Shown one piece after another: positions 6,294-57,058 of a stretch of 64,000 nt of DNA; position 1 is the first letter of the stretch, and every line of letters begins with the position of its first letter. The notes beneath the pieces were generated by a model that had not been told where the DNA came from, searched no databases, and worked only from the letters and a program-made list of their open reading frames with translations. This DNA comes from Candidatus Omnitrophota bacterium. GTDB taxonomy: Bacteria > Omnitrophota > Gorgyraeia > Gygaellales > Profunditerraquicolaceae. The DNA lies in assembly GCA_025453395.1 (NCBI GenBank), contig JALOQK010000008.1, positions 938 through 64,937 of the forward strand. The letters are read 5' to 3'. A program made the translations under genes and the position numbers.

Positions 6294-6737
6294 TTATTCA
6301 CTGTAATATTTGGAAATGGCCTGTTTTATATCTGAAGAAGTAGAAACAAAGGTCTGGATATTGCATCCGGTCAGCATTTCCACATCCTCGATAGCGTGGA
6401 CATTCAAAGGATTAGACATGGCTAAGGTCAAATTATTGCCTATTTTGTCTATCGGGATAAGCACGTATTGCTTGGCAACCCGGCACGGAACAATATTGGC
6501 TACATCAGAGCTTATTTCATAATTACCAAGCGGCAAATACGGAAAACCATACTGCGCGGTTAAGGATTGGGCGATATCTTCTTCCTTGGCAAACCCCAGC
6601 TCCACCATGATCTCTCCGATAAGGCCGCCTCTTTCTTTCTGGCAGTTCAACGCCTTATCAAGCTGGTCTGCGGATACAAGCCCGCGGTCCACCAACAATT
6701 CACCTAATTGCTTATTAATTATTCTTTTTATCGGCAT
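6294..6737 (-). CDS. Stand-alone MshEN (T2SSE_N) domain protein, putative c-di-GMP receptor
   Basis: 147 aa. Both tandem 24-residue MshEN motifs with a 5-aa spacer: QLGELLVDRGLVSADQLDKALNCQ-KERGG-LIGEIMVELGFAKEEDIAQSLTAQ. No ATPase domain. Confidence 0.75.
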   Translation of the reverse strand: MPIKRIINKQLGELLVDRGLVSADQLDKALNCQKERGGLIGEIMVELGFAKEEDIAQSLTAQYGFPYLPLGNYEISSDVANIVPCRVAKQYVLIPIDKIGNNLTLAMSNPLNVHAIEDVEMLTGCNIQTFVSTSSDIKQAISKYYSE

Positions 6738-9909: not shown

Positions 9910-9914
9910 AGTAG

Positions 9915-10019
9915 TAGTGTAAAGCTTAAAGCGAAAAATGCAAAATCATAATTAAAAATTTAAAAGTTTTCAATTTTACGCTATAGTTTTACGCTTTGCG
10001 CTTTGAATTTTTAGCTTTC
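9915..10019. repeat. Palindromic intergenic element (aaagcttaaa...gcgtaaaac / gttttacgc...tttaagcttt family), copy 1
   Basis: About 100 nt with internal inverted repeats. A 38-nt core (aattttacgctatagttttacgctttgcgctttga) reappears inverted at 19320-19395 with 3 mismatches. Confidence 0.5.
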
Positions 10020-19307: not shown

Positions 19308-19400
19308 AATTTTAATTTAAAGCTTAAAACGCAAAGCGTAAAACCATAGCGTAAAATTAAAAATTTTGAATTTTGAATTATAGTTTTGCGTTTTTCGTTT
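19308..19400. repeat. Palindromic intergenic element, copy 2 (inverted relative to copy 1)
   Basis: Its reverse complement matches 9960-10015 (aattttacgctatGgttttacgctttgcgTttta). Internally palindromic (aaaacgcaaagcgtaaaacc / ggttttacgc...). Confidence 0.5.
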
Positions 19401-19872
19401 TACGCTTATTTGTTATTAATATTGTCCATCCTAACAACATTGCTCCTGCTGTTATCGCCGAATCCGCGATATTGAACACCGGCCAGATACGAAAATCCAG
19501 AAAATCAACCACATAACCAAACATCAAACGGTCAATAAGATTTCCCAGGCCGCCGGCAAGGATCAAGGTTAAAGAAAAATTACAAAGGTTGTTCTTATAG
19601 CCCTCTTTTTTAAGCTTGCGGATTATAAAAAAACTCACCAGCAAAGTAATGGCGATAAAAATCCAGCGTTGATATTTGAATAGGCCAAATGCCGCGCCGC
19701 GGTTATGCACCAAAGTAACATGAAAAACATTCTGGATAACCGGGATAGATTGATAAAGGTATAGTTTTGAGGAAACAAAGGCCTTACTAAGCTGATCAGC
19801 AATAATAAGGCCAAAGAGAAATAAAGAAAATTTAAAGAAAGGTTTTATTTTTTTTCCAGTTTTTCCTGACAT
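19378..19872 (-). CDS. lspA: Lipoprotein signal peptidase II
   Basis: 164 aa. Conserved NRGAAFGLF and FNIADSAI motifs. Classic ileS-lspA linkage. Confidence 0.9.
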   Translation of the reverse strand: MSGKTGKKIKPFFKFSLFLFGLIIADQLSKAFVSSKLYLYQSIPVIQNVFHVTLVHNRGAAFGLFKYQRWIFIAITLLVSFFIIRKLKKEGYKNNLCNFSLTLILAGGLGNLIDRLMFGYVVDFLDFRIWPVFNIADSAITAGAMLLGWTILITNKRKTKNAKL

Positions 19873-20228
19873 TTAACACAAAGCCGGGCATAAGGCACTG
19901 CTTTAAGGCGAGTCTTGGAAATAGTCTTCTTACAGCTCTCACAAAAGCCGTAACTTCCTTCATCTATTTTCTTCATCGCGTCATCCAGCTCATAAAGGAA
20001 TTTGCGGTCATTTGAAGCGATGCCCAAAGAAAATTCACGGTCATAGGTATCGGTAGCCACATCAGCCATATGATAAGTATAGCCTGATATATCTCCGGAT
20101 GCCTCTTTCTGTGATTTTTTAAGCGTGTCCTCGGAAATATGGTTGATATCGTCAATAACGCCGTCCTTGACCTTAATCAATAATCTCTTAAACTCAATCA
20201 ACTCTTTTTTATTCATTTTCTTCTTCAC
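19845..20228 (-). CDS. DksA/TraR-family C4 zinc-finger protein
   Basis: 127 aa. C-terminal CESCKKTI...CVKCQEK four-cysteine finger preceded by a coiled-coil region. Confidence 0.75.
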   Translation of the reverse strand: MKKKMNKKELIEFKRLLIKVKDGVIDDINHISEDTLKKSQKEASGDISGYTYHMADVATDTYDREFSLGIASNDRKFLYELDDAMKKIDEGSYGFCESCKKTISKTRLKAVPYARLCVKCQEKLEKK

Positions 20229-23047
20229 GCTGAAATCCCCCCTATGGCTTTAAGGCAAGTCTTACAGATTGACGGATGCGCATCATCTTCCCCCACCGAA
20301 TGCGAATAATTCCAACAGCGCATGCATTTTACCCCATCTGCTTTACTGGCGGCCAGGCATACATCCGGAAAAACGGTATTACGCCAATCTCCACCAGAAA
20401 TAAGATCTTTGGATTCTTCCACAATCACAGAAGAAACTTTAAAGGCCTCACAGAGCTGTTGGCTTAAGCTGCGTAAGAATGTATACTGATTAGGGGACTT
20501 TGTCAATATATTTATTTTGGCGTCAAAAGAACTGCCGATTATTCCGGCAATGCGCTTCTCTTCTAAAGCCTTGGCAACATCGGGGACCATCTTAAGGACC
20601 TCTTCCATATCTTGATAAGCCAAAGAGCCATGGACCTTGCCGGATTCCAACAAAGACAAAATAAGCCTGGTATCTGGATATTCCAAAAGATGCACACTGG
20701 CGGCATCTTTATCTTTAGAAGTTTTAGGCATATAAAACCATATTTCTTCAGCGGTAAAAGACAAAATCGGCGCGACTACCCTTACGATCGCATTTAACAA
20801 ATCATATATCGCCGTCTGAGCAGACCTTCTTTCAAGGGAATCTGCCCCGTATGTATACAATCTGCCCTTTACCATATCCAAATAATACATGGATAGATCT
20901 TCATTGCAAAAATCATAAATACCTTTATAGGCTTTATAAAATTCAAATTCTTCATAGCCGTTTGTTATAACTTTATCAAGCGCAAGGCAACTTTTATAGA
21001 GTATCCATTTATCAAGCATGCCCATATCATCATAGCTTATTCTGTCTTTATCGGGATTAAAATCATAGAGGTTGCTTAAGATAAACCTGCAGGTGTTGCG
21101 CACTTTACGGTAACCTTCCGAGAGCCTTTGCAGGATTTCTTTGGATATTCTTATATCCTCGTTGTAATCGCTTGAAGCCACCCACAGGCGCAAAATATCC
21201 GCGCCATAGTCTTTTATAATATCAAATGGAGAAACCACATTGCCTTGCGACTTGGACATTTTTCTTCCCTGACCATCCACCACAAAACCATGGGTTAGGA
21301 CACTTTTAAATGGCGCCTGATTATCAATGCAGACAGCCGGGATAAGCGAAGACTGGAACCACCCCCTATGCTGGTCTGAACCCTCAAGGTACAAAGAAGC
21401 GGGAAATTCCAATTCACTTCTTTTCTTTAATACTGACTGGCTGCTTACTCCGGAATCAAACCATACATCAAGGATATCTGTGCCTTTAGAGAATATTTTT
21501 CCCGCGCAGCAAGGGCATTGGATGTCTTTATATAAAAACTCCTGCACGCCAGATTCAAACCAAACATCCGTTCCATTTTCTTTAACCATCTGGCGGAATA
21601 CCTCAATAACCTTATTATCCAGGAATTCTTCTTTGCAATTATTGCATACCAAAGAGGGAATCGGCACCCCCCAATATCTTTGACGCGATAAACACCAATC
21701 CGGGCGCAAGCCCACCATTGAACCAATGCGCTCTTTTCCCGAAGAGGGAATCCACTTCACCTTATTTTGGATTACTTCAAGTAAAGCCTGCCTGAGATTA
21801 TTATGTTCAAGTTTTAAGAACCATTGATTTGTCGCTCTGAAAATAACCGGTGACTTGCAGCGCCAGCAATGCGGATAAGAATGCGGATATTTCATGCTAT
21901 AAACAAGCATCCCTAAACTATCCAATTTTTGTATGATCGGATCATTGGCAGAAAATACCTGCATCCCTTTAAATTCACCGGTAGAAGCGTCAAAATTCCC
22001 CCGGTTATCAACCGGCATAATAATATCCAACTTGTATTTTATCCCGGTGAAATAATCGTCATTGCCATGCCCGGGAGCGGTATGCACCAAACCAGTGCCT
22101 TCTTCATGTGAAACATAATCTGCCAAAACTACTTTTCCTTTTCTATCTAAAAAAGGATGCTCATAAACAAGCCCATCCAGCTTTTCGCCTTTAATGCGGG
22201 AAATAACCGCACATTGGCCAAGGCCGGTATTTTTTATAACTGTATCGAGCAGGCTTTCGGCAATAACTAAAATTCCTTTCGCAGTGTTTACCAAAACATA
22301 TTCCAGTTTTTGATGCACTGCTACTGCCACATTAGCCAGAAGCGTCCAGGGGGTGGTAGTCCAAATCAATAAATAAGCGTCTTGGCCATCTAAGGGATTG
22401 GTTAATTTAAATTTCACATAAACAGAGGGAGAAACATGATCCTCGTATTCAACCTCTGCCTCGGCAAGGGCGGTTTCACATTTATAACACCAGTTAACCG
22501 GCTTTAATCCTCTATAGATATACCCCTTCTGCGCCAGTTTGCCAAAAGAATCCACTATCCCCTCTTCATACTGGCGTGATAAAGTAAGATACGGATTATC
22601 CCAATCCCCGAATATACCTAAACGCTTAAACTGTTCTTTCTGCAAACCCACATATTTCATCGCGTAATCATGCGCTTTCTTGCGGAAATCAAGCTGCGAT
22701 ATCTGGGTTTTATTGATCTTTAATTCCTTTAACAACTGATGCTCAATGGGCAACCCATGGCAATCCCAACCCGGAACATAGGCGCAATTAAAAGCACGCA
22801 TGGTTTTATATTTAAGAATGATATCCTTAAGTGTCTTGTTTAAGGCATGGCCTATATGTATATCCCCGTTGGCATAAGGCGGCCCGTCATGCAAAATATA
22901 TTTTGGCAAACCTTGAGTTTTATTCTGGATAGAAACGTAAATATTCTTCTTCTCCCACTGCTCAAAAATAACGGGCTCTTTCTTGGGCAGATCCGCCTTC
23001 ATGGGAAAATCAGTTTTAGGAAGATTAAGAGTAAGTTTATAGTCCAT
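20225..23047 (-). CDS. ileS: Isoleucyl-tRNA synthetase
   Basis: 940 aa. HIGH (DIHIGHALNK) and KMSKS motifs. N-terminus MDYKLTLNLPKTDFPMKADLPKKEP is canonical for IleS. C-terminal zinc-binding cysteines. Confidence 0.97.
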   Translation of the reverse strand: MDYKLTLNLPKTDFPMKADLPKKEPVIFEQWEKKNIYVSIQNKTQGLPKYILHDGPPYANGDIHIGHALNKTLKDIILKYKTMRAFNCAYVPGWDCHGLPIEHQLLKELKINKTQISQLDFRKKAHDYAMKYVGLQKEQFKRLGIFGDWDNPYLTLSRQYEEGIVDSFGKLAQKGYIYRGLKPVNWCYKCETALAEAEVEYEDHVSPSVYVKFKLTNPLDGQDAYLLIWTTTPWTLLANVAVAVHQKLEYVLVNTAKGILVIAESLLDTVIKNTGLGQCAVISRIKGEKLDGLVYEHPFLDRKGKVVLADYVSHEEGTGLVHTAPGHGNDDYFTGIKYKLDIIMPVDNRGNFDASTGEFKGMQVFSANDPIIQKLDSLGMLVYSMKYPHSYPHCWRCKSPVIFRATNQWFLKLEHNNLRQALLEVIQNKVKWIPSSGKERIGSMVGLRPDWCLSRQRYWGVPIPSLVCNNCKEEFLDNKVIEVFRQMVKENGTDVWFESGVQEFLYKDIQCPCCAGKIFSKGTDILDVWFDSGVSSQSVLKKRSELEFPASLYLEGSDQHRGWFQSSLIPAVCIDNQAPFKSVLTHGFVVDGQGRKMSKSQGNVVSPFDIIKDYGADILRLWVASSDYNEDIRISKEILQRLSEGYRKVRNTCRFILSNLYDFNPDKDRISYDDMGMLDKWILYKSCLALDKVITNGYEEFEFYKAYKGIYDFCNEDLSMYYLDMVKGRLYTYGADSLERRSAQTAIYDLLNAIVRVVAPILSFTAEEIWFYMPKTSKDKDAASVHLLEYPDTRLILSLLESGKVHGSLAYQDMEEVLKMVPDVAKALEEKRIAGIIGSSFDAKINILTKSPNQYTFLRSLSQQLCEAFKVSSVIVEESKDLISGGDWRNTVFPDVCLAASKADGVKCMRCWNYSHSVGEDDAHPSICKTCLKAIGGISA

Positions 23048-23051
23048 TTTT

Positions 23052-23106
23052 CAGCTATCAGCTATCAGCTATCAGCTATCAGCTATCAGCTATCAGCTAT
23101 CAGCTA
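23052..23106. repeat. Tandem heptanucleotide array (CAGCTAT)x~8 abutting the ileS start codon
   Basis: Perfect 7-nt repeats read directly at 23052-23106. On the minus strand the mRNA leader reads (ATAGCTG)n AAAA ATG. Confidence 0.95.
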
Positions 23107-23141
23107 AAAAAGCTGAAGACTGAAAGCTGAAGGCTGAAAGC
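23107..23141. repeat. Degenerate heptamer array (RCTGAAR)x4 between the mtnP stop and the CAGCTAT array
   Basis: The sequence read directly is gctgaag actgaaa gctgaag gctgaaa. Confidence 0.8.
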
Positions 23142-23999
23142 TTAAATATATTTTCCTATAATTATCTTTAAATCCTTTTTTACTTTCGCCGGAATCATTT
23201 TTCTATCAGTGACAATCGCGCATTTTAAGGCATCCTGACAAGAACATACGCGCTTGTCAGGCAGCGCTTTAACGATCTGAATAATCATTTTCTTGGCGTT
23301 TTCAATATTCCTTTGCAGATTTTGCATCACCATATCCACCGTCACGCTTGCGTGCTTGGGATACCAGCAGTCATAATCTGTAACAGCGGCCAAAGTAGAG
23401 TAACATATCTCTGCTTCTCGGGATAGTTTTGCTTCAGCCATATTGGTCATTCCAATTATGTCCATGCCCCAACTTCGGTAAAGATTCGATTCAGCCAAAG
23501 TTGAGAATGCCGGGCCTTCCATGTTAATATAAGTCCCGCGAGGATGAATGTCTAATTTCAGCTTCTCGCCCGCAGCATAAACTACCTTTGCCAAATCTTG
23601 GCAAACAGGATGCGCGAAAACTATATGCGCCACAATGCCTTCATCAAAAAATGTCATCGCGCGAGCGTTATTAGTGCGGTCCACAAACTGATCAATAACC
23701 ACAAAATCAAGCGGCTTGAATTCTTCTTTAAGGCTGCCGCAGGCGCTTATGGAAACAATGCTTTCCACGCCAAGTTTCTTCATCCCATAAATATTGGCGC
23801 GGTAATTTATTTGGCTGGGAGAAATACAATGCCCTCTTCCGTGGCGAGGAAGAAAAACAACTTCTTTGCCCTCTATTTTCCCGGTAATAAATTTATCTGA
23901 AGGCTTGCCAAAAGGAGTGCTTAATGCGACCTCTTTTATGCCCTTCAAACTATCAATCTGATATAAACCGCTACCGCCAATAATCCCCAATTTAGACAT
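23142..23999 (-). CDS. mtnP: S-methyl-5'-thioadenosine phosphorylase
   Basis: 285 aa PNP/MTAP fold. Glycine-rich N-terminus LGIIGGSGLY. Confidence 0.88.
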   Translation of the reverse strand: MSKLGIIGGSGLYQIDSLKGIKEVALSTPFGKPSDKFITGKIEGKEVVFLPRHGRGHCISPSQINYRANIYGMKKLGVESIVSISACGSLKEEFKPLDFVVIDQFVDRTNNARAMTFFDEGIVAHIVFAHPVCQDLAKVVYAAGEKLKLDIHPRGTYINMEGPAFSTLAESNLYRSWGMDIIGMTNMAEAKLSREAEICYSTLAAVTDYDCWYPKHASVTVDMVMQNLQRNIENAKKMIIQIVKALPDKRVCSCQDALKCAIVTDRKMIPAKVKKDLKIIIGKYI

Positions 24000-24836: not shown

Positions 24837-25526
24837 TTACCTTTCAAATATCGCTCTGCCTAATCTTATTATTGTGGCGGCTTCTTCAATAGCAATTTCA
24901 AAATCATCGCTCATGCCCATGGAAAGCTGTAAGCTATAAGCTGTAAGCTTTAAGCTGTAAATCTTATCCCTTAATTCCCTAAGCTGGCGAAAATAGGGAC
25001 GCGCTTCTTCGGGCGCACTAACTAAAGGGGCGATGGTCATTAAACCTTTTAATTTTATATTTTTTAAAGAAGCGATCTGTTTTATAACCAAAACCGCGTC
25101 ATCAGGACTTAAACCAAATTTTGTTTCTTCTGGAGAAGTCTTTATCTGTAGTAATATCTGCTGTACTTTATTGATCTTGGCAGCCTGCCTATCGATTTCC
25201 TCTGCCAGGCGCAGGCTATCTACAGAATGAATCAAATCAAAGATCCTAACCGCATCTTTTACTTTATTAGTCTGCAAGTGGCCGATCATATGCCATTTAA
25301 TGGCAAATGGCAAATGGCAAATGGCAGACAGCTGATTAAATTTCAAAACAGCTTCTTGGACTTTATTCTCGCCGATATCAGATATGCCCTGTTGTAAAAC
25401 CTCTTGTATTTCTTGGGCGCTTCTGCCCTTGGCTACCGCAACAATAGTTATTTCAGAAGGGTCGCGGTTTGCTTTAAGGCAGGCCTGACCGACACGAAAA
25501 CTAACATCAGCCAATCCATTATACAT
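24837..25526 (-). CDS. yggS: YggS/YlmE-family PLP homeostasis protein
   Basis: 229 aa. HMIGHLQTNK and LSMGMSDDF signatures. Carries two in-frame heptamer-repeat insertions. Confidence 0.85.
   Translation of the reverse strand: MYNGLADVSFRVGQACLKANRDPSEITIVAVAKGRSAQEIQEVLQQGISDIGENKVQEAVLKFNQLSAICHLPFAIKWHMIGHLQTNKVKDAVRIFDLIHSVDSLRLAEEIDRQAAKINKVQQILLQIKTSPEETKFGLSPDDAVLVIKQIASLKNIKLKGLMTIAPLVSAPEEARPYFRQLRELRDKIYSLKLTAYSLQLSMGMSDDFEIAIEEAATIIRLGRAIFER
24924..24960. repeat. Heptamer tandem array (AAGCTNT)x5 inside the yggS coding sequence
   Basis: aagctgt aagctat aagctgt aagcttt aagctgt. Encodes YSLKLTAYSLQ just before the LSMGMS motif. Confidence 0.9.
25299..25326. repeat. Heptamer tandem array (AATGGCA)x4 inside the yggS coding sequence
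   Basis: Four perfect copies. Encodes the atypical insert HLPFAIKW immediately before the conserved HMIGHLQTNK. Confidence 0.9.
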
Positions 25527-25547
25527 AAAAACCCCTGAGGCACAATC

Positions 25548-26804
25548 TTAAAAATACTCCAGGTACAAAGCCTTGGCTTGATCAACTAACCTCTGTAATG
25601 GTTTGCGGCTAGCGTCATGAGGAAAAATAAACCCGGGCAATTTATCGTTTTCCAAAACCTCAACTAAAATGCCAAGGCAGGTAAGATACCCCAAATATTT
25701 CATCCCGGAAAGTTTAGGGTGGTTGATCAATGAAGAAACTCTCTGGGAGCTGACACGGGCAAGCTGCACCGGAAAAGAAAAAACAGACTCTGCTTTCTCC
25801 AAGAAACCTTCCTGTAAAACTGTGCCTCCGTATAAAACAAAATTAGTCACTTGGTTACTATTAAAATTAACAAAGGCATTTTTCTTGATTTCTTCAAGCA
25901 AACACTTTGCGCTATTGGTCACAACATCAACGATAAGCTTATGGCTTATCGGCTTATAGATATTATCCCTTTTGATTAAGATTTCTTTATCTACTGCAGG
26001 CGAAGCTGCCAAATAAATACTGCCGTATGTTTTCTTTACTTCTTCAGCCAAAGAATAAGGAATTCCTATTTCTTTAGAAATGGCCAGCGTAATATCATCT
26101 CCTCCGATGGGCAAATTGTGCACTTCTTTTAACATGCCATTTTCTAAGATAACAAGCTGCGTTATGTCGCTTCCAATATCGCAGAAAATACTTAAACCCT
26201 GCTTCATTTTCTCTTCAAAAAGAAGCTTGCTGGTAATCATCCCTGAATAAAATACCTCTTTTAAGTCAAGCCCCGCCTGACTTATAGCGCCAGTTAAATT
26301 CTGAAGGCAAGAAAGGCGCGCGCAAATAAGGTACAAATCTACCTGCAAACGGTGGCTGTATAGGCCTATTGGGTTGACAATATCTGCTTTATTATCAATA
26401 GCGTAACCAAAAGGCACCTCTGCAATAATCTCATCTTCCATGTTAGATCCCAAAATCCGCGCCTGAAGATTGGCTTTTTCTACATCAAAAGAAGTAATTA
26501 CCTTATTGCCTCTTTCCGCCAAAGGGATGATCGCATGGCTATGACGGGCGCTTATATCCTCACCGGCGATATTAGCATAAACATATTTTATCTGAATGCC
26601 GGAATTATTTCTAATCTTCTTGAATAAACTGCCTAAGGCTTTTACCAATTCTATTGAATCAACAACCGACCCTCTTCTTAGGCCGCAGGAAGGGATACTT
26701 TCAAAGAAAACCTCAGCAATCTTGCCTTGGGCAAGCCTTGCTACAGCCACAGATATCTTGCTTGATCCTATATCTAACGCGCAGATACTACGTTTACTGA
26801 ACAT
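25548..26804 (-). CDS. ftsA: Cell division protein FtsA
   Basis: 418 aa actin-fold. ALDIGSSKI phosphate-1 motif. Position downstream of ftsQ at the end of the dcw cluster. C-terminal extension. Confidence 0.9.
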   Translation of the reverse strand: MFSKRSICALDIGSSKISVAVARLAQGKIAEVFFESIPSCGLRRGSVVDSIELVKALGSLFKKIRNNSGIQIKYVYANIAGEDISARHSHAIIPLAERGNKVITSFDVEKANLQARILGSNMEDEIIAEVPFGYAIDNKADIVNPIGLYSHRLQVDLYLICARLSCLQNLTGAISQAGLDLKEVFYSGMITSKLLFEEKMKQGLSIFCDIGSDITQLVILENGMLKEVHNLPIGGDDITLAISKEIGIPYSLAEEVKKTYGSIYLAASPAVDKEILIKRDNIYKPISHKLIVDVVTNSAKCLLEEIKKNAFVNFNSNQVTNFVLYGGTVLQEGFLEKAESVFSFPVQLARVSSQRVSSLINHPKLSGMKYLGYLTCLGILVEVLENDKLPGFIFPHDASRKPLQRLVDQAKALYLEYF

Positions 26805-45555: not shown

Positions 45556-45627
45556 CCCCCACAACTAAACCCCACCCTTAACCCCTGCCTACCGGCAGGC
45601 AGGCACAACCCATAACCCATAACTGAC
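45556..45627. repeat. C-rich / G4-prone tract with (AACCCAT)x2 heptamers and a cctgcctaccggcaggcagg palindrome
   Basis: Runs CCCCC, CCCC, CCC, CCCC on the + strand, so the minus-strand transcript has 4 or more G-runs. Heptamer aacccat aacccat aactgac. Confidence 0.6.
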
Positions 45628-45635
45628 CCTATCAT

Positions 45636-53514: not shown

Positions 53515-53535
53515 GTTTCCTCCTTTTTTTTATCA

Positions 53536-53696
53536 ACTAAATATATAATCCCAATAACCAATGACCAAATCTCAATCACCAAATAAATTCCAATAATCAA
53601 TAACCAATTTACCAAACAGGTTTGGTAAATTGGGCAATTGGTAATTGGTTATTGTTTGATTATTGGTGCTTGATAATTGGTTATTAATCATATGAA
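53536..53696. repeat. Long imperfect palindrome built from CCAAT/ATTGG units between ribBA and ribH
   Basis: Arms ...ccaataatcaataaccaatttaccaaac / gtttggtaaattgggcaattggtaattggttattgtttgattattgg centred on ccaaacaggtttgg (53612-53625). Confidence 0.5.
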
Positions 53697-53719
53697 CTAT
53701 TGATATTTATGCCCACTAT

Positions 53720-56911: not shown

Positions 56912-56995
56912 GTTCTTAATCTTATTGGATAGAATGAGTAGTTAGTATGGGTAGCAAGGTTAGGATGAGAATTAGAATGAGGGAAATATTCTTAA

Positions 56996-57051
56996 TAATT
57001 CCCCGCAACCCACCCCCATCCCCGACTCACAACTCAGAACTCAGAACTCAT
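56996..57051. repeat. C-rich (G4-prone on minus strand) tract followed by an (AACTCAG)x3 heptamer array
   Basis: ccccgcaacccacccccatcccc then gactcac aactcag aactcag aactcat, in the pgsA-pgpA intergenic region. Confidence 0.6.
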
Positions 57052-57058
57052 CCTATCT

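Follow-up and report, generated by a model that had tools for sequence, protein, structure and literature searches.

In a contig of a Candidatus Omnitrophota bacterium (JALOQK010000008.1, assembly GCA_025453395.1), the gene for S-methyl-5'-thioadenosine phosphorylase (mtnP) is followed on the minus strand by the gene for isoleucine-tRNA ligase (ileS). The 94-nt gap between them, at 23048-23141 of the 64,000-nt stretch that we analysed (hereafter the window), consists entirely of two runs of 7-base repeats (Table 1). Read in mRNA sense, the spacer and its edges are TAA-GC-(NTTCAGC)x4-TTTTT-(TAGCTGA)x8-AAA-ATG. On the plus strand the same tract runs from ttt (23048-50) through eight TCAGCTA units with zero mismatches and AAAAA to GCTGAAG-ACTGAAA-GCTGAAG-GCTGAAA-GC, and the TTA that follows is the mtnP stop codon. 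What is such a tract doing directly ahead of an essential gene?

Two inverted heptamer arrays fill the spacer

Tandem Repeats Finder (TRF) describes the main array as 8.0 copies of period 7 with 100% matches (score 112) and the second, at 23112-23142, as 4.4 copies with 79% matches. Perfect arrays (period of at least 5, at least three units) were entirely absent from 50 shuffles of the window, so the array is longer than chance allows, as expected of a heptanucleotide long simple-sequence repeat (LSSR), a class in which units of 5-11 nt follow one another head to tail. The tandem anatomy given in a first-pass annotation of the letters alone is therefore confirmed by the sequence, TRF and shuffles; what that annotation overlooked is the inverted complementarity of the two arrays, which together make a predicted hairpin. 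Per unit, about 6 of 7 bases are complementary, TTCAGC having the reverse complement GCTGAA and pairing with GCTGAT of the right arm.

For the spacer alone the prediction is a long, interrupted stem-loop of -49.6 kcal/mol, and with its flanks the predicted energy is -50.5 kcal/mol (z = -6 against dinucleotide shuffles). The base of the predicted stem lies 2 nt past the mtnP stop and 2-4 nt ahead of the ileS start. Because the right arm has eight units and the left arm four, multiple pairing registers are possible, and the surplus right-arm units can pair with one another since AGCU is a palindrome. In this prediction, a heptamer simple-sequence repeat (SSR) makes up one arm of a long leader hairpin, the arrangement known from Haemophilus influenzae hmw1A.

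The left arm abuts the mtnP stop and is free of stop codons in all three frames. The ileS start appears correctly placed, because the N-terminus MDYKLTLNLP is common to all relatives, and the spacer contains no ATG, GTG or TTG and thus encodes no leader peptide. No Shine-Dalgarno (SD) sequence is evident ahead of ileS, as the first-pass annotation had stated: GGAG, GAGG and AGGA are all absent upstream of the ATG. These motifs occur at -20 to -4 in just 20 of 58 window genes, compared with 6 of 58 at a control position, so an SD-less ileS is normal for this genome. Relatives in which mtnP and ileS are tightly spaced likewise have just A/T-rich sequence ahead of the ileS ATG.

Might the number of units act on the start codon through the fold? 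When the leader was folded with 0 to 12 right-arm units, total stability shifted with unit number, whereas the predicted unpaired probability of the ileS AUG stayed at 0.59-0.66 for 3 to 12 units. Thermodynamics therefore gives no copy-number switch.

Conventional leader elements were sought as well. An intrinsic terminator scan of 23048-23141 returned no site, the sense-strand stem running into AAAAUG and not into a U tract; promoter-like matches were at chance level (24 found, 23.7 expected); and Rfam covariance models matched the spacer solely as generic miRNA-precursor hairpins, far below threshold. With no start codon in the spacer either, we dropped its reading as a terminator, promoter, T-box, riboswitch or attenuator, or leader peptide.

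Copy number in sister assemblies and in a relative

The window derives from contig Ga0392394_0000196 of the Joint Genome Institute (JGI), and its proteins are named Candidatus Omnitrophota in the sources. Among GTDB species representatives, all IleS relatives are Omnitrophota metagenome-assembled genomes (MAGs), the best at 66% identity. The best MtnP relatives, both in JGI metagenomes and among 5.8 billion clustered proteins, are 77% identical, from which we conclude that this organism has been sampled essentially once. The four operon proteins are singletons in 90% clusters, except for one fragment.

A sibling contig from a different JGI sample (L125) differs from the window at 1 of 1624 positions (99.94% identity) and, at the consensus level of this independent assembly, has the identical 94-nt spacer with exactly eight units. 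A Logan contig of SRR12684589 (L127, 7573-7637) is 100% identical to the window and ends 3.4 units into the TAGCTGA array; this end is an assembly break and not a variant. Perfect heptamer arrays longer than the assembler k-mer break short-read assemblies, and such arrays are thus probably under-represented in MAGs. Between the window and the sibling contig, no copy-number polymorphism of the kind that marks a contingency locus was found at consensus level.

A homologous spacer element is present in a more distant relative, locus L002, whose IleS is 65% identical to that of the window. The 5' boundary is identical and the left arm matches at 31 of 35 positions, whereas the right arm is 23 nt (about three units) shorter with a degenerate 3' end, leaving about 4-5 units against eight in the window. 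Unit number therefore changes on evolutionary time scales, and the eight perfect units of the window look like a recent expansion, to judge from the sequence. The variability anticipated for the tract thus applies between the window and L002 and is not seen in the sibling contig.

The mtnP-ileS junction across relatives

For comparison we assembled 123 related loci (genome loci, 389 kb; metagenome loci, 539 kb), which had been ascertained by way of the yggS-to-ileS region. In 95 loci mtnP and ileS are adjacent: 27 overlap, 26 have a gap of 0-15 nt, 7 of 16-40 nt, 19 of 41-150 nt and 16 of more than 150 nt, several of the last reaching ~0.9-1.2 kb, with room for an extra gene. Since 53 of the 95 junctions are overlapping or no wider than 15 nt, the ancestral junction was most likely tight and translationally coupled, and the hairpin is an insertion into such a junction. 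Comparison with related genomes, which the first-pass annotation had put forward as a check, thus yields one homologous element with fewer units, in L002, and a majority of relatives with almost no spacer.

Period-7 inverted arrays occupy the junction in seven loci (the window, L002, L011, L043, L049, L060 and L107), and L007 has a period-8 analogue. The units differ (CAGCT, AGCTATA/AAGCTTA, CGTATAG, ACCAYGA, AGTGAAC), the arms are always complementary, and the element always reaches from the stop codon up to a point 0-10 nt ahead of the ileS ATG. Other species have non-periodic hairpins at the same position. Vertical and independent origin could not be told apart with an MtnP neighbour-joining tree, which was too star-like; tight junctions are found in the nearest neighbours of the window and in those of L002.

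Heptamer arrays throughout the lineage

The tract had been presented as a feature of the ileS leader, and this specificity was not borne out. Similar arrays lie in the ribBA-ribH, lspA-lgt and pgsA-pgpA spacers, in a further intercistronic spacer and in two loops of yggS (Table 1), and most window spacers longer than ~60 nt are of the same build (53515-53719, 19308-19420, 9910-10019, 56912-57058 and 45563-45635). The recurrence of the unit family itself within the window, already noted in the first pass, does hold, a CAGCT-type unit being found again in one of the yggS loops. In the window, 7 of the 9 TRF arrays with at least three copies have period 7; in genome loci the figure is 35 of 60, and in metagenome loci 49 of 100. 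Outside the ascertained region (205 kb), 13 arrays have period 7, six have period 6 and two have period 8, and a 50-kb Escherichia coli control contained no period-7 array. These loci thus show what defines an LSSR lineage, an excess of arrays in which period 7 dominates.

Inversion is as characteristic as the period. An inverted unit with at most one mismatch is present in 20 of the 27 arrays that have another array within 60 nt, and 40 of 91 arrays have at least two inverted units in their flanks, compared with 9-15 in reversed-only or complemented-only controls. Heptamer arrays within coding sequences were without inverted partners in this pairing survey. Unit families are shared by 17.7% of within-locus array pairs and by 4.8% of between-locus pairs (Fisher p = 3e-5), an excess dominated by locus L007, and the notion that different loci of one genome share unit families is only suggestive. 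Over the ~10-64 kb covered per genome, there are several arrays and some shared families per locus.

Table 1. Genes, repeat arms and heptamer-array elements of the window.
Feature	Position	Strand	Remarks
Intercistronic spacer	9910..10019	-	inverted 7-periodic arms, AAAGCGT/AAAAC family
lspA-lgt junction	19308..19420	-	inverted 7-periodic arms AAGCGTAAAAC... / GTTTTACGCTT...; left arm overlaps the lspA 3' end; unit family as in 9910-10019
ileS, isoleucine-tRNA ligase	20225..23047	-	TIGR00392, 937 bits; start ATG at 23045-23047
Right (3') arm on mRNA, (TAGCTGA)x8	23051..23106	-	all units perfect; ends 3 nt before the ileS ATG; stops in all three frames
U5 linker	23107..23111	-	nominal loop between the arrays; the predicted minimum-free-energy structure loops instead within the longer right arm
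Left (5') arm on mRNA, GC-TTTCAGC-CTTCAGC-TTTCAGT-CTTCAGC	23112..23141	-	four degenerate units, inverted complements of the right-arm unit
mtnP, S-methyl-5'-thioadenosine phosphorylase	23142..23999	-	TIGR01694; stop TAA at 23142-23144
yggS site B in-frame array	24924..24960	-	sense units CAGCTTA/AAGCTTA/TAGCTTA, CAGCT family as in the spacer; encodes YSLKLTAYSLQ just before conserved LSMGMSDD
yggS site A in-frame array	25299..25326	-	sense (TGCCATT)x4 plus one inverted unit; encodes LSAICHLPFAI just before conserved KWHMIGHLQTN
ribBA-ribH spacer	53515..53719	-	205-nt imperfect hairpin, arms of degenerate CCAATAA/TTGGTAA heptamers, predicted -57 kcal/mol; same architecture as the ileS spacer
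pgsA-pgpA spacer	56912..57058	-	long imperfect hairpin, predicted -51.7 kcal/mol, with (GAGTTCT)-type heptamers on its 5' side

Several of these elements have relatives of their own. An exact 20-nt string of the ribBA-ribH element, ACCAATGACCAAATCTCAAT, recurs just downstream of mtnP in L026 (1816-1835), a non-homologous position in a genome with only 51% IleS identity to the window, which suggests from sequence that elements of this type form a dispersed or mobile family. The intercistronic spacer at 9910-10019 and the lspA-lgt junction both carry inverted AAAGCGTAAAAC / GTTTTACGCTTT arms and make up a within-genome repeat family. A second dispersed family is the GC-rich hairpin CCTGCC(N2-14)GGCAGG, with 14 matches over 979 kb of Omnitrophota loci where shuffles lead one to expect 0.85 (window 45584-45603, L057 1375, L063 4008, L011 1727 and others); it occurs between genes and also in frame in yggS loops, where it encodes, for example, LPAGQAG. 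Judged as a repetitive extragenic palindromic (REP) element or a MITE (a miniature transposable element with inverted repeats), the CAGCT element of the mtnP-ileS spacer has the hairpin, and its sole relative in the window is the yggS array.

The window as a whole is ~95% coding, and 57 of its 59 open reading frames of at least 100 aa lie on the minus strand, an extreme co-orientation. GC skew of the plus strand is uniformly negative (-0.07 to -0.17).

In-frame arrays in yggS and IleS

In an alignment of 57 Omnitrophota yggS genes, both loop sites carry ~4-5 heptamer units in many species (L002, L006, L007, L008, L011, L012, L016, L043, L045, L047-L050, L056, L057, L069, L070 and L121), with near-constant loop length and species-specific units. 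Under a strict test for arrays in coding sequences (self-matches at 19 or more of 21 positions for a given lag), 13 of 55 yggS genes passed at lag 7, exclusively at the two loop sites, and none passed at any other lag from 4 to 12. Elsewhere, lag-7 passes numbered 0 of 79 in proC, 0 of 118 in mtnP, 0 of 32 in ftsA and 2 of 97 in ileS. At site B, read in a fixed register, unit identity is 0.76 within arrays and 0.42 between the consensus units of different species (0.34 in array-less species), and the contrast between the first two values is a signature of concerted evolution. Frameshifted yggS alleles, sought as a footprint of slippage, were not found among 62 yggS loci.

IleS has insertions of its own. 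A variable surface loop (around residue 215 of the window IleS) holds in-frame insertions in L069, L045 and L064, consisting respectively of (AACTATC)x4.6 (6518-6549), AATAACC-like heptamers and a GC-rich inverted-repeat hairpin.

The yggS neighbourhood in the window (24837-26804) belongs to a cell-division cluster of murC, murB, ddl, a 253-aa open reading frame and ftsA, with yggS starting 21 nt after ftsA. No ftsZ lies between ftsA and yggS, unlike in the usual ftsQ-ftsA-ftsZ order, of which E. coli is an example.

TAGCTGA arrays in viral contigs

Arrays of at least four TAGCTGA units are present in 14 viral contigs, compared with 6 and 8 for two scrambled heptamers and 32 for TAACTGA. These counts match a generic background of heptamer SSRs, and we dropped the idea that TAGCTGA is a special, widely mobile element. 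In three IMG/VR contigs of ~70% GC (L131, 4366-4560; L132; L135), an AT-richer cassette ends ~10 nt before an ATG (MNKGELSKQ...) and runs (NTCAGC)x5, (TAGCTGA)4-5, then GCTGAAA-type units, the arms being arranged as in the window element. In viral contig L140 (2170-2250), GGGGATT/GGGGAAA-type heptamers, of the G-quadruplex type seen in Nostoc and Xanthomonas, adjoin a TAGCTGA array.

Discussion

We favour the view, at a probability of roughly 55%, that the mtnP-ileS spacer represents one member of a widespread Omnitrophota class of heptanucleotide tandem-repeat elements, that it is tolerated at this junction, and that it is not a dedicated ileS switch. By analogy, such spacer elements are best explained as LSSRs comparable to the tandem heptanucleotide repeats of cyanobacteria. 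Arrays would arise and change length by slipped-strand mispairing, to which arm-to-arm (quasi-palindrome) templating may add, and would persist wherever sequence is unconstrained. How could an essential gene tolerate such an insertion? On the polycistronic mRNA the hairpin would loop out the 94 nt and leave the mtnP stop adjacent to the SD-less, A-rich start of ileS. A ribosome that finishes mtnP would open the outer part of the stem and free that start, and translational coupling between the two genes would then be kept, not broken, after insertion. The element would accordingly be repeat DNA that propagates itself and is tolerated, its effect on RNA structure being generic at most, and would not serve as a fast copy-number switch of ileS. 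A regulatory role of the hairpin is unproven, and the gene-specific regulatory claim for the ileS leader is not supported by what could be tested.

Several points weigh against this view. The unit sequence of both arms has been kept between the window and L002 despite the 65% identity of their IleS proteins, and scattered lineages have junction unit families in common (CAGCT, the window and L002; CGTATAG, L035, L037, L043 and L049), which hints at selection on sequence or at targeted insertion and not at neutral drift. A predicted stem of about -50 kcal/mol that covers the site of ribosome binding of an essential gene should carry a fitness cost unless it is functional, and the strong predicted folding of all expanded junctions could equally reflect selection for a hairpin there. 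Folding energies favour the sense strand in 6 cases and the antisense strand in 4, with 2 equal. The density of arrays genome-wide is an estimate from ~1 Mb of loci syntenic with the window, not from whole genomes. Finally, we infer, and do not observe, the slippage mechanism and the coupling model.

The main rival to tolerated repeat DNA is that the hairpin acts as a functional intercistronic RNA stem-loop that punctuates the operon, serving as a processing site for RNase III or another endonuclease, or as a stabilising element through which the mtnP and ileS mRNAs would meet different fates or be expressed at a set ratio. We regard this as a serious contender, although an unlikely one. The predicted stem spans at least two helical turns, is very stable, and should burden an essential gene. 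Like the other array hairpins it lies between co-directional genes, some of them in single-pathway operons such as ribBA-ribH and pgsA-pgpA. Both arms are conserved in the comparison of the window with L002. The seven unit families found at the junction all keep complementary arms, which amounts to covariation at the level of units. There are also precedents in the repeat hairpin of the H. influenzae hmw1A 5' untranslated region (UTR) (PMC12721329) and in the REP elements of E. coli operons. However, the sense strand has no consistent energy advantage over the antisense strand, and neither sense-antisense folding nor G-U counts show a consistent bias that would distinguish an RNA-level from a DNA-level signal. 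Moreover, most relatives manage without any spacer, and arrays of like kind in coding sequences lack inverted partners.

A more far-reaching idea, which we hold tentatively and consider doubtful, is that heptanucleotide arrays are actively maintained in Omnitrophota, either by a lineage-specific mechanism that copies or homogenises units or by a factor that recognises arrays, and that the mtnP-ileS hairpin is a working punctuation or coupling element. Active maintenance would explain why array positions stay fixed over very long times, including those kept in frame at constant length in yggS, and it would explain the joint change of units at each site, the unit families shared across loci and the complementary arms of intercistronic arrays. 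Tolerated, slippage-driven repeats remain our preferred account of the spacer.

We think it improbable that the spacer is a contingency locus, in which slipped-strand changes in unit number would alter the length or structure of the leader and so tune or switch ileS within a population. The eight perfect units are indeed a slippage-prone tract, their count differs from that of the homologous element in L002, and a heptamer SSR in the 5' leader does control hmw1A expression in H. influenzae (PMC12721329). Yet the count is the same in two samples, the predicted accessibility of the start is independent of it, and the target is an essential housekeeping gene and not a surface or restriction-modification gene. 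Equivalent arrays are found, moreover, at many unrelated junctions and in coding sequences, the latter never out of frame.

There is similarly little chance that the units are arrayed binding sites for a heptamer-recognising translation factor or regulator, an analogy with what has been proposed for the TAACTGA repeats of Beggiatoaceae. TAGCTGA is one base from TAACTGA and its forward array abuts an SD-less start, as in that system (PMC4679880), and arrays of one genome are inclined to share unit families (17.7% against 4.8% of pairs, p = 3e-5). But that sharing is driven largely by L007, and units at the same site vary widely among species. TAGCTGA repeats are predicted to be structured and TAACTGA repeats unstructured, the Beggiatoaceae genome does not repeat TAGCTGA, TAGCTGA arrays in viral contigs are just ~2x the scrambled controls, and no candidate protein was identified. 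That an assembler created the tract or its length is very improbable: one Logan contig does break in the array after 3.4 units, a sign that assemblers struggle with it, but the 94-nt spacer is identical in two independent JGI assemblies of different samples, and dozens of MAGs that other projects produced contain homologous or analogous arrays, some of them in frame within conserved genes.

Relation to known repeat systems

Heptamers have been described as the dominant class of bacterial LSSRs, mostly intergenic and attributed to polymerase slippage (Mrazek et al. 2007, as cited in PMC4679880 and PMC4692102). The Omnitrophota arrays share with these LSSRs the head-to-tail 7-nt units far beyond chance length and the dominance of heptamers; they differ in that they typically form inverted, hairpin-forming pairs and also lie in frame in coding loops, although 7 is not a multiple of 3. 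The short tandemly repeated repetitive (STRR) sequences of cyanobacteria are, as summarised in a later paper, tandem heptanucleotides of a few unit families at many loci, with no known function (Mazel et al. 1990, via PMC4692102). Tandem heptamers are common to both, and those of Omnitrophota may be dispersed in a similar way; the unit sequences and the phylum differ, and inverted arms and conserved positions within coding sequences fall outside the STRR definition. The STRR units are CCCCAGT, TTGGTCA and CAACAGT. The units here are TAGCTGA/TTCAGCN and others, in an Omnitrophota bacterium, so by unit sequence they are not STRRs.

Marine Beggiatoaceae carry TAACTGA direct repeats in forward orientation a few nucleotides from SD-less starts, including those of essential genes (MacGregor 2015, PMC4679880). 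Both heptamers have the form stop-C-stop, giving stops in three frames, both run forward, and the window array ends 3 nt before an SD-less ATG. The unit is one base off, however, and TAGCTGA, unlike TAACTGA, is predicted to be structured; we found no TAGCTGA direct repeats in the Beggiatoaceae genome. That genome has one dominant unit with inverted sets in 1 of 170 cases, whereas Omnitrophota have many units, commonly inverted.

In H. influenzae hmw1A, the long 5'-UTR hairpin that RNase III cleaves has one arm made of a transcribed (ATCTTTC)n tract (PMC12721329). The likeness lies in a leader heptamer SSR that forms a hairpin arm directly upstream of a gene. At hmw1A, the other arm is a non-repeat, G-rich sequence, the gene product is a phase-variable adhesin and copy number is variable inside populations; the predicted mtnP-ileS hairpin has an array in each arm and precedes a housekeeping synthetase gene, and it showed no variation at consensus level. 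The GGGAATC and GGGGA(T/C)T arrays of Xanthomonas and Nostoc are intergenic heptamer arrays at kept junctions that vary in length and sequence from one related species to another, some as inverted pairs (PMC4692102), but these are G-rich and quadruplex-forming, whereas the Omnitrophota units are A/T-rich and would pair by Watson-Crick bonds.

REP elements are small dispersed hairpins between co-transcribed genes (PMC3333891). In this they and the bacterial interspersed mosaic elements (BIMEs) that are grouped with them resemble the Omnitrophota elements, and in-frame insertion into surface loops of conserved proteins is reminiscent of Rickettsia palindromic elements (RPEs). RPEs reportedly lie in coding sequences (Ogata et al. 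2000). Both REP elements and RPEs are unique-sequence palindromes, not tandem arrays.

In the library that was searched we found no literature linking Omnitrophota to such repeats, and no paper that we found describes the phylum as repeat-rich. What appears to be new is the lineage, the regular inverted-array hairpins between co-transcribed genes, and the in-frame arrays at conserved loops with concerted turnover of units.

Implications

An excess of heptanucleotides in bacteria has been known since 1990 as STRRs and since 2007 as LSSRs, but neither a function nor a mechanism for it is accepted. The Omnitrophota are uncultured; their cells are often ultra-small and their genomes very compact. 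Repeat hairpins of 70-205 nt are nonetheless tolerated in this compact lineage between genes that are transcribed together, as are 7-nt arrays in conserved enzymes. The comparative set assembled here, with one junction represented both with and without the element, seven unit families with complementary arms, and in-frame arrays of constant length that evolve in concert, offers a tractable system in which to separate selfish slippage products from functional RNA or DNA elements and to ask why the period is 7. For annotation the arrays carry a warning, since such tracts break short-read assemblies and are not to be read as gene-specific regulators without further evidence. If the arrays are in fact actively maintained, the mtnP-ileS hairpin would be part of a previously undescribed system.

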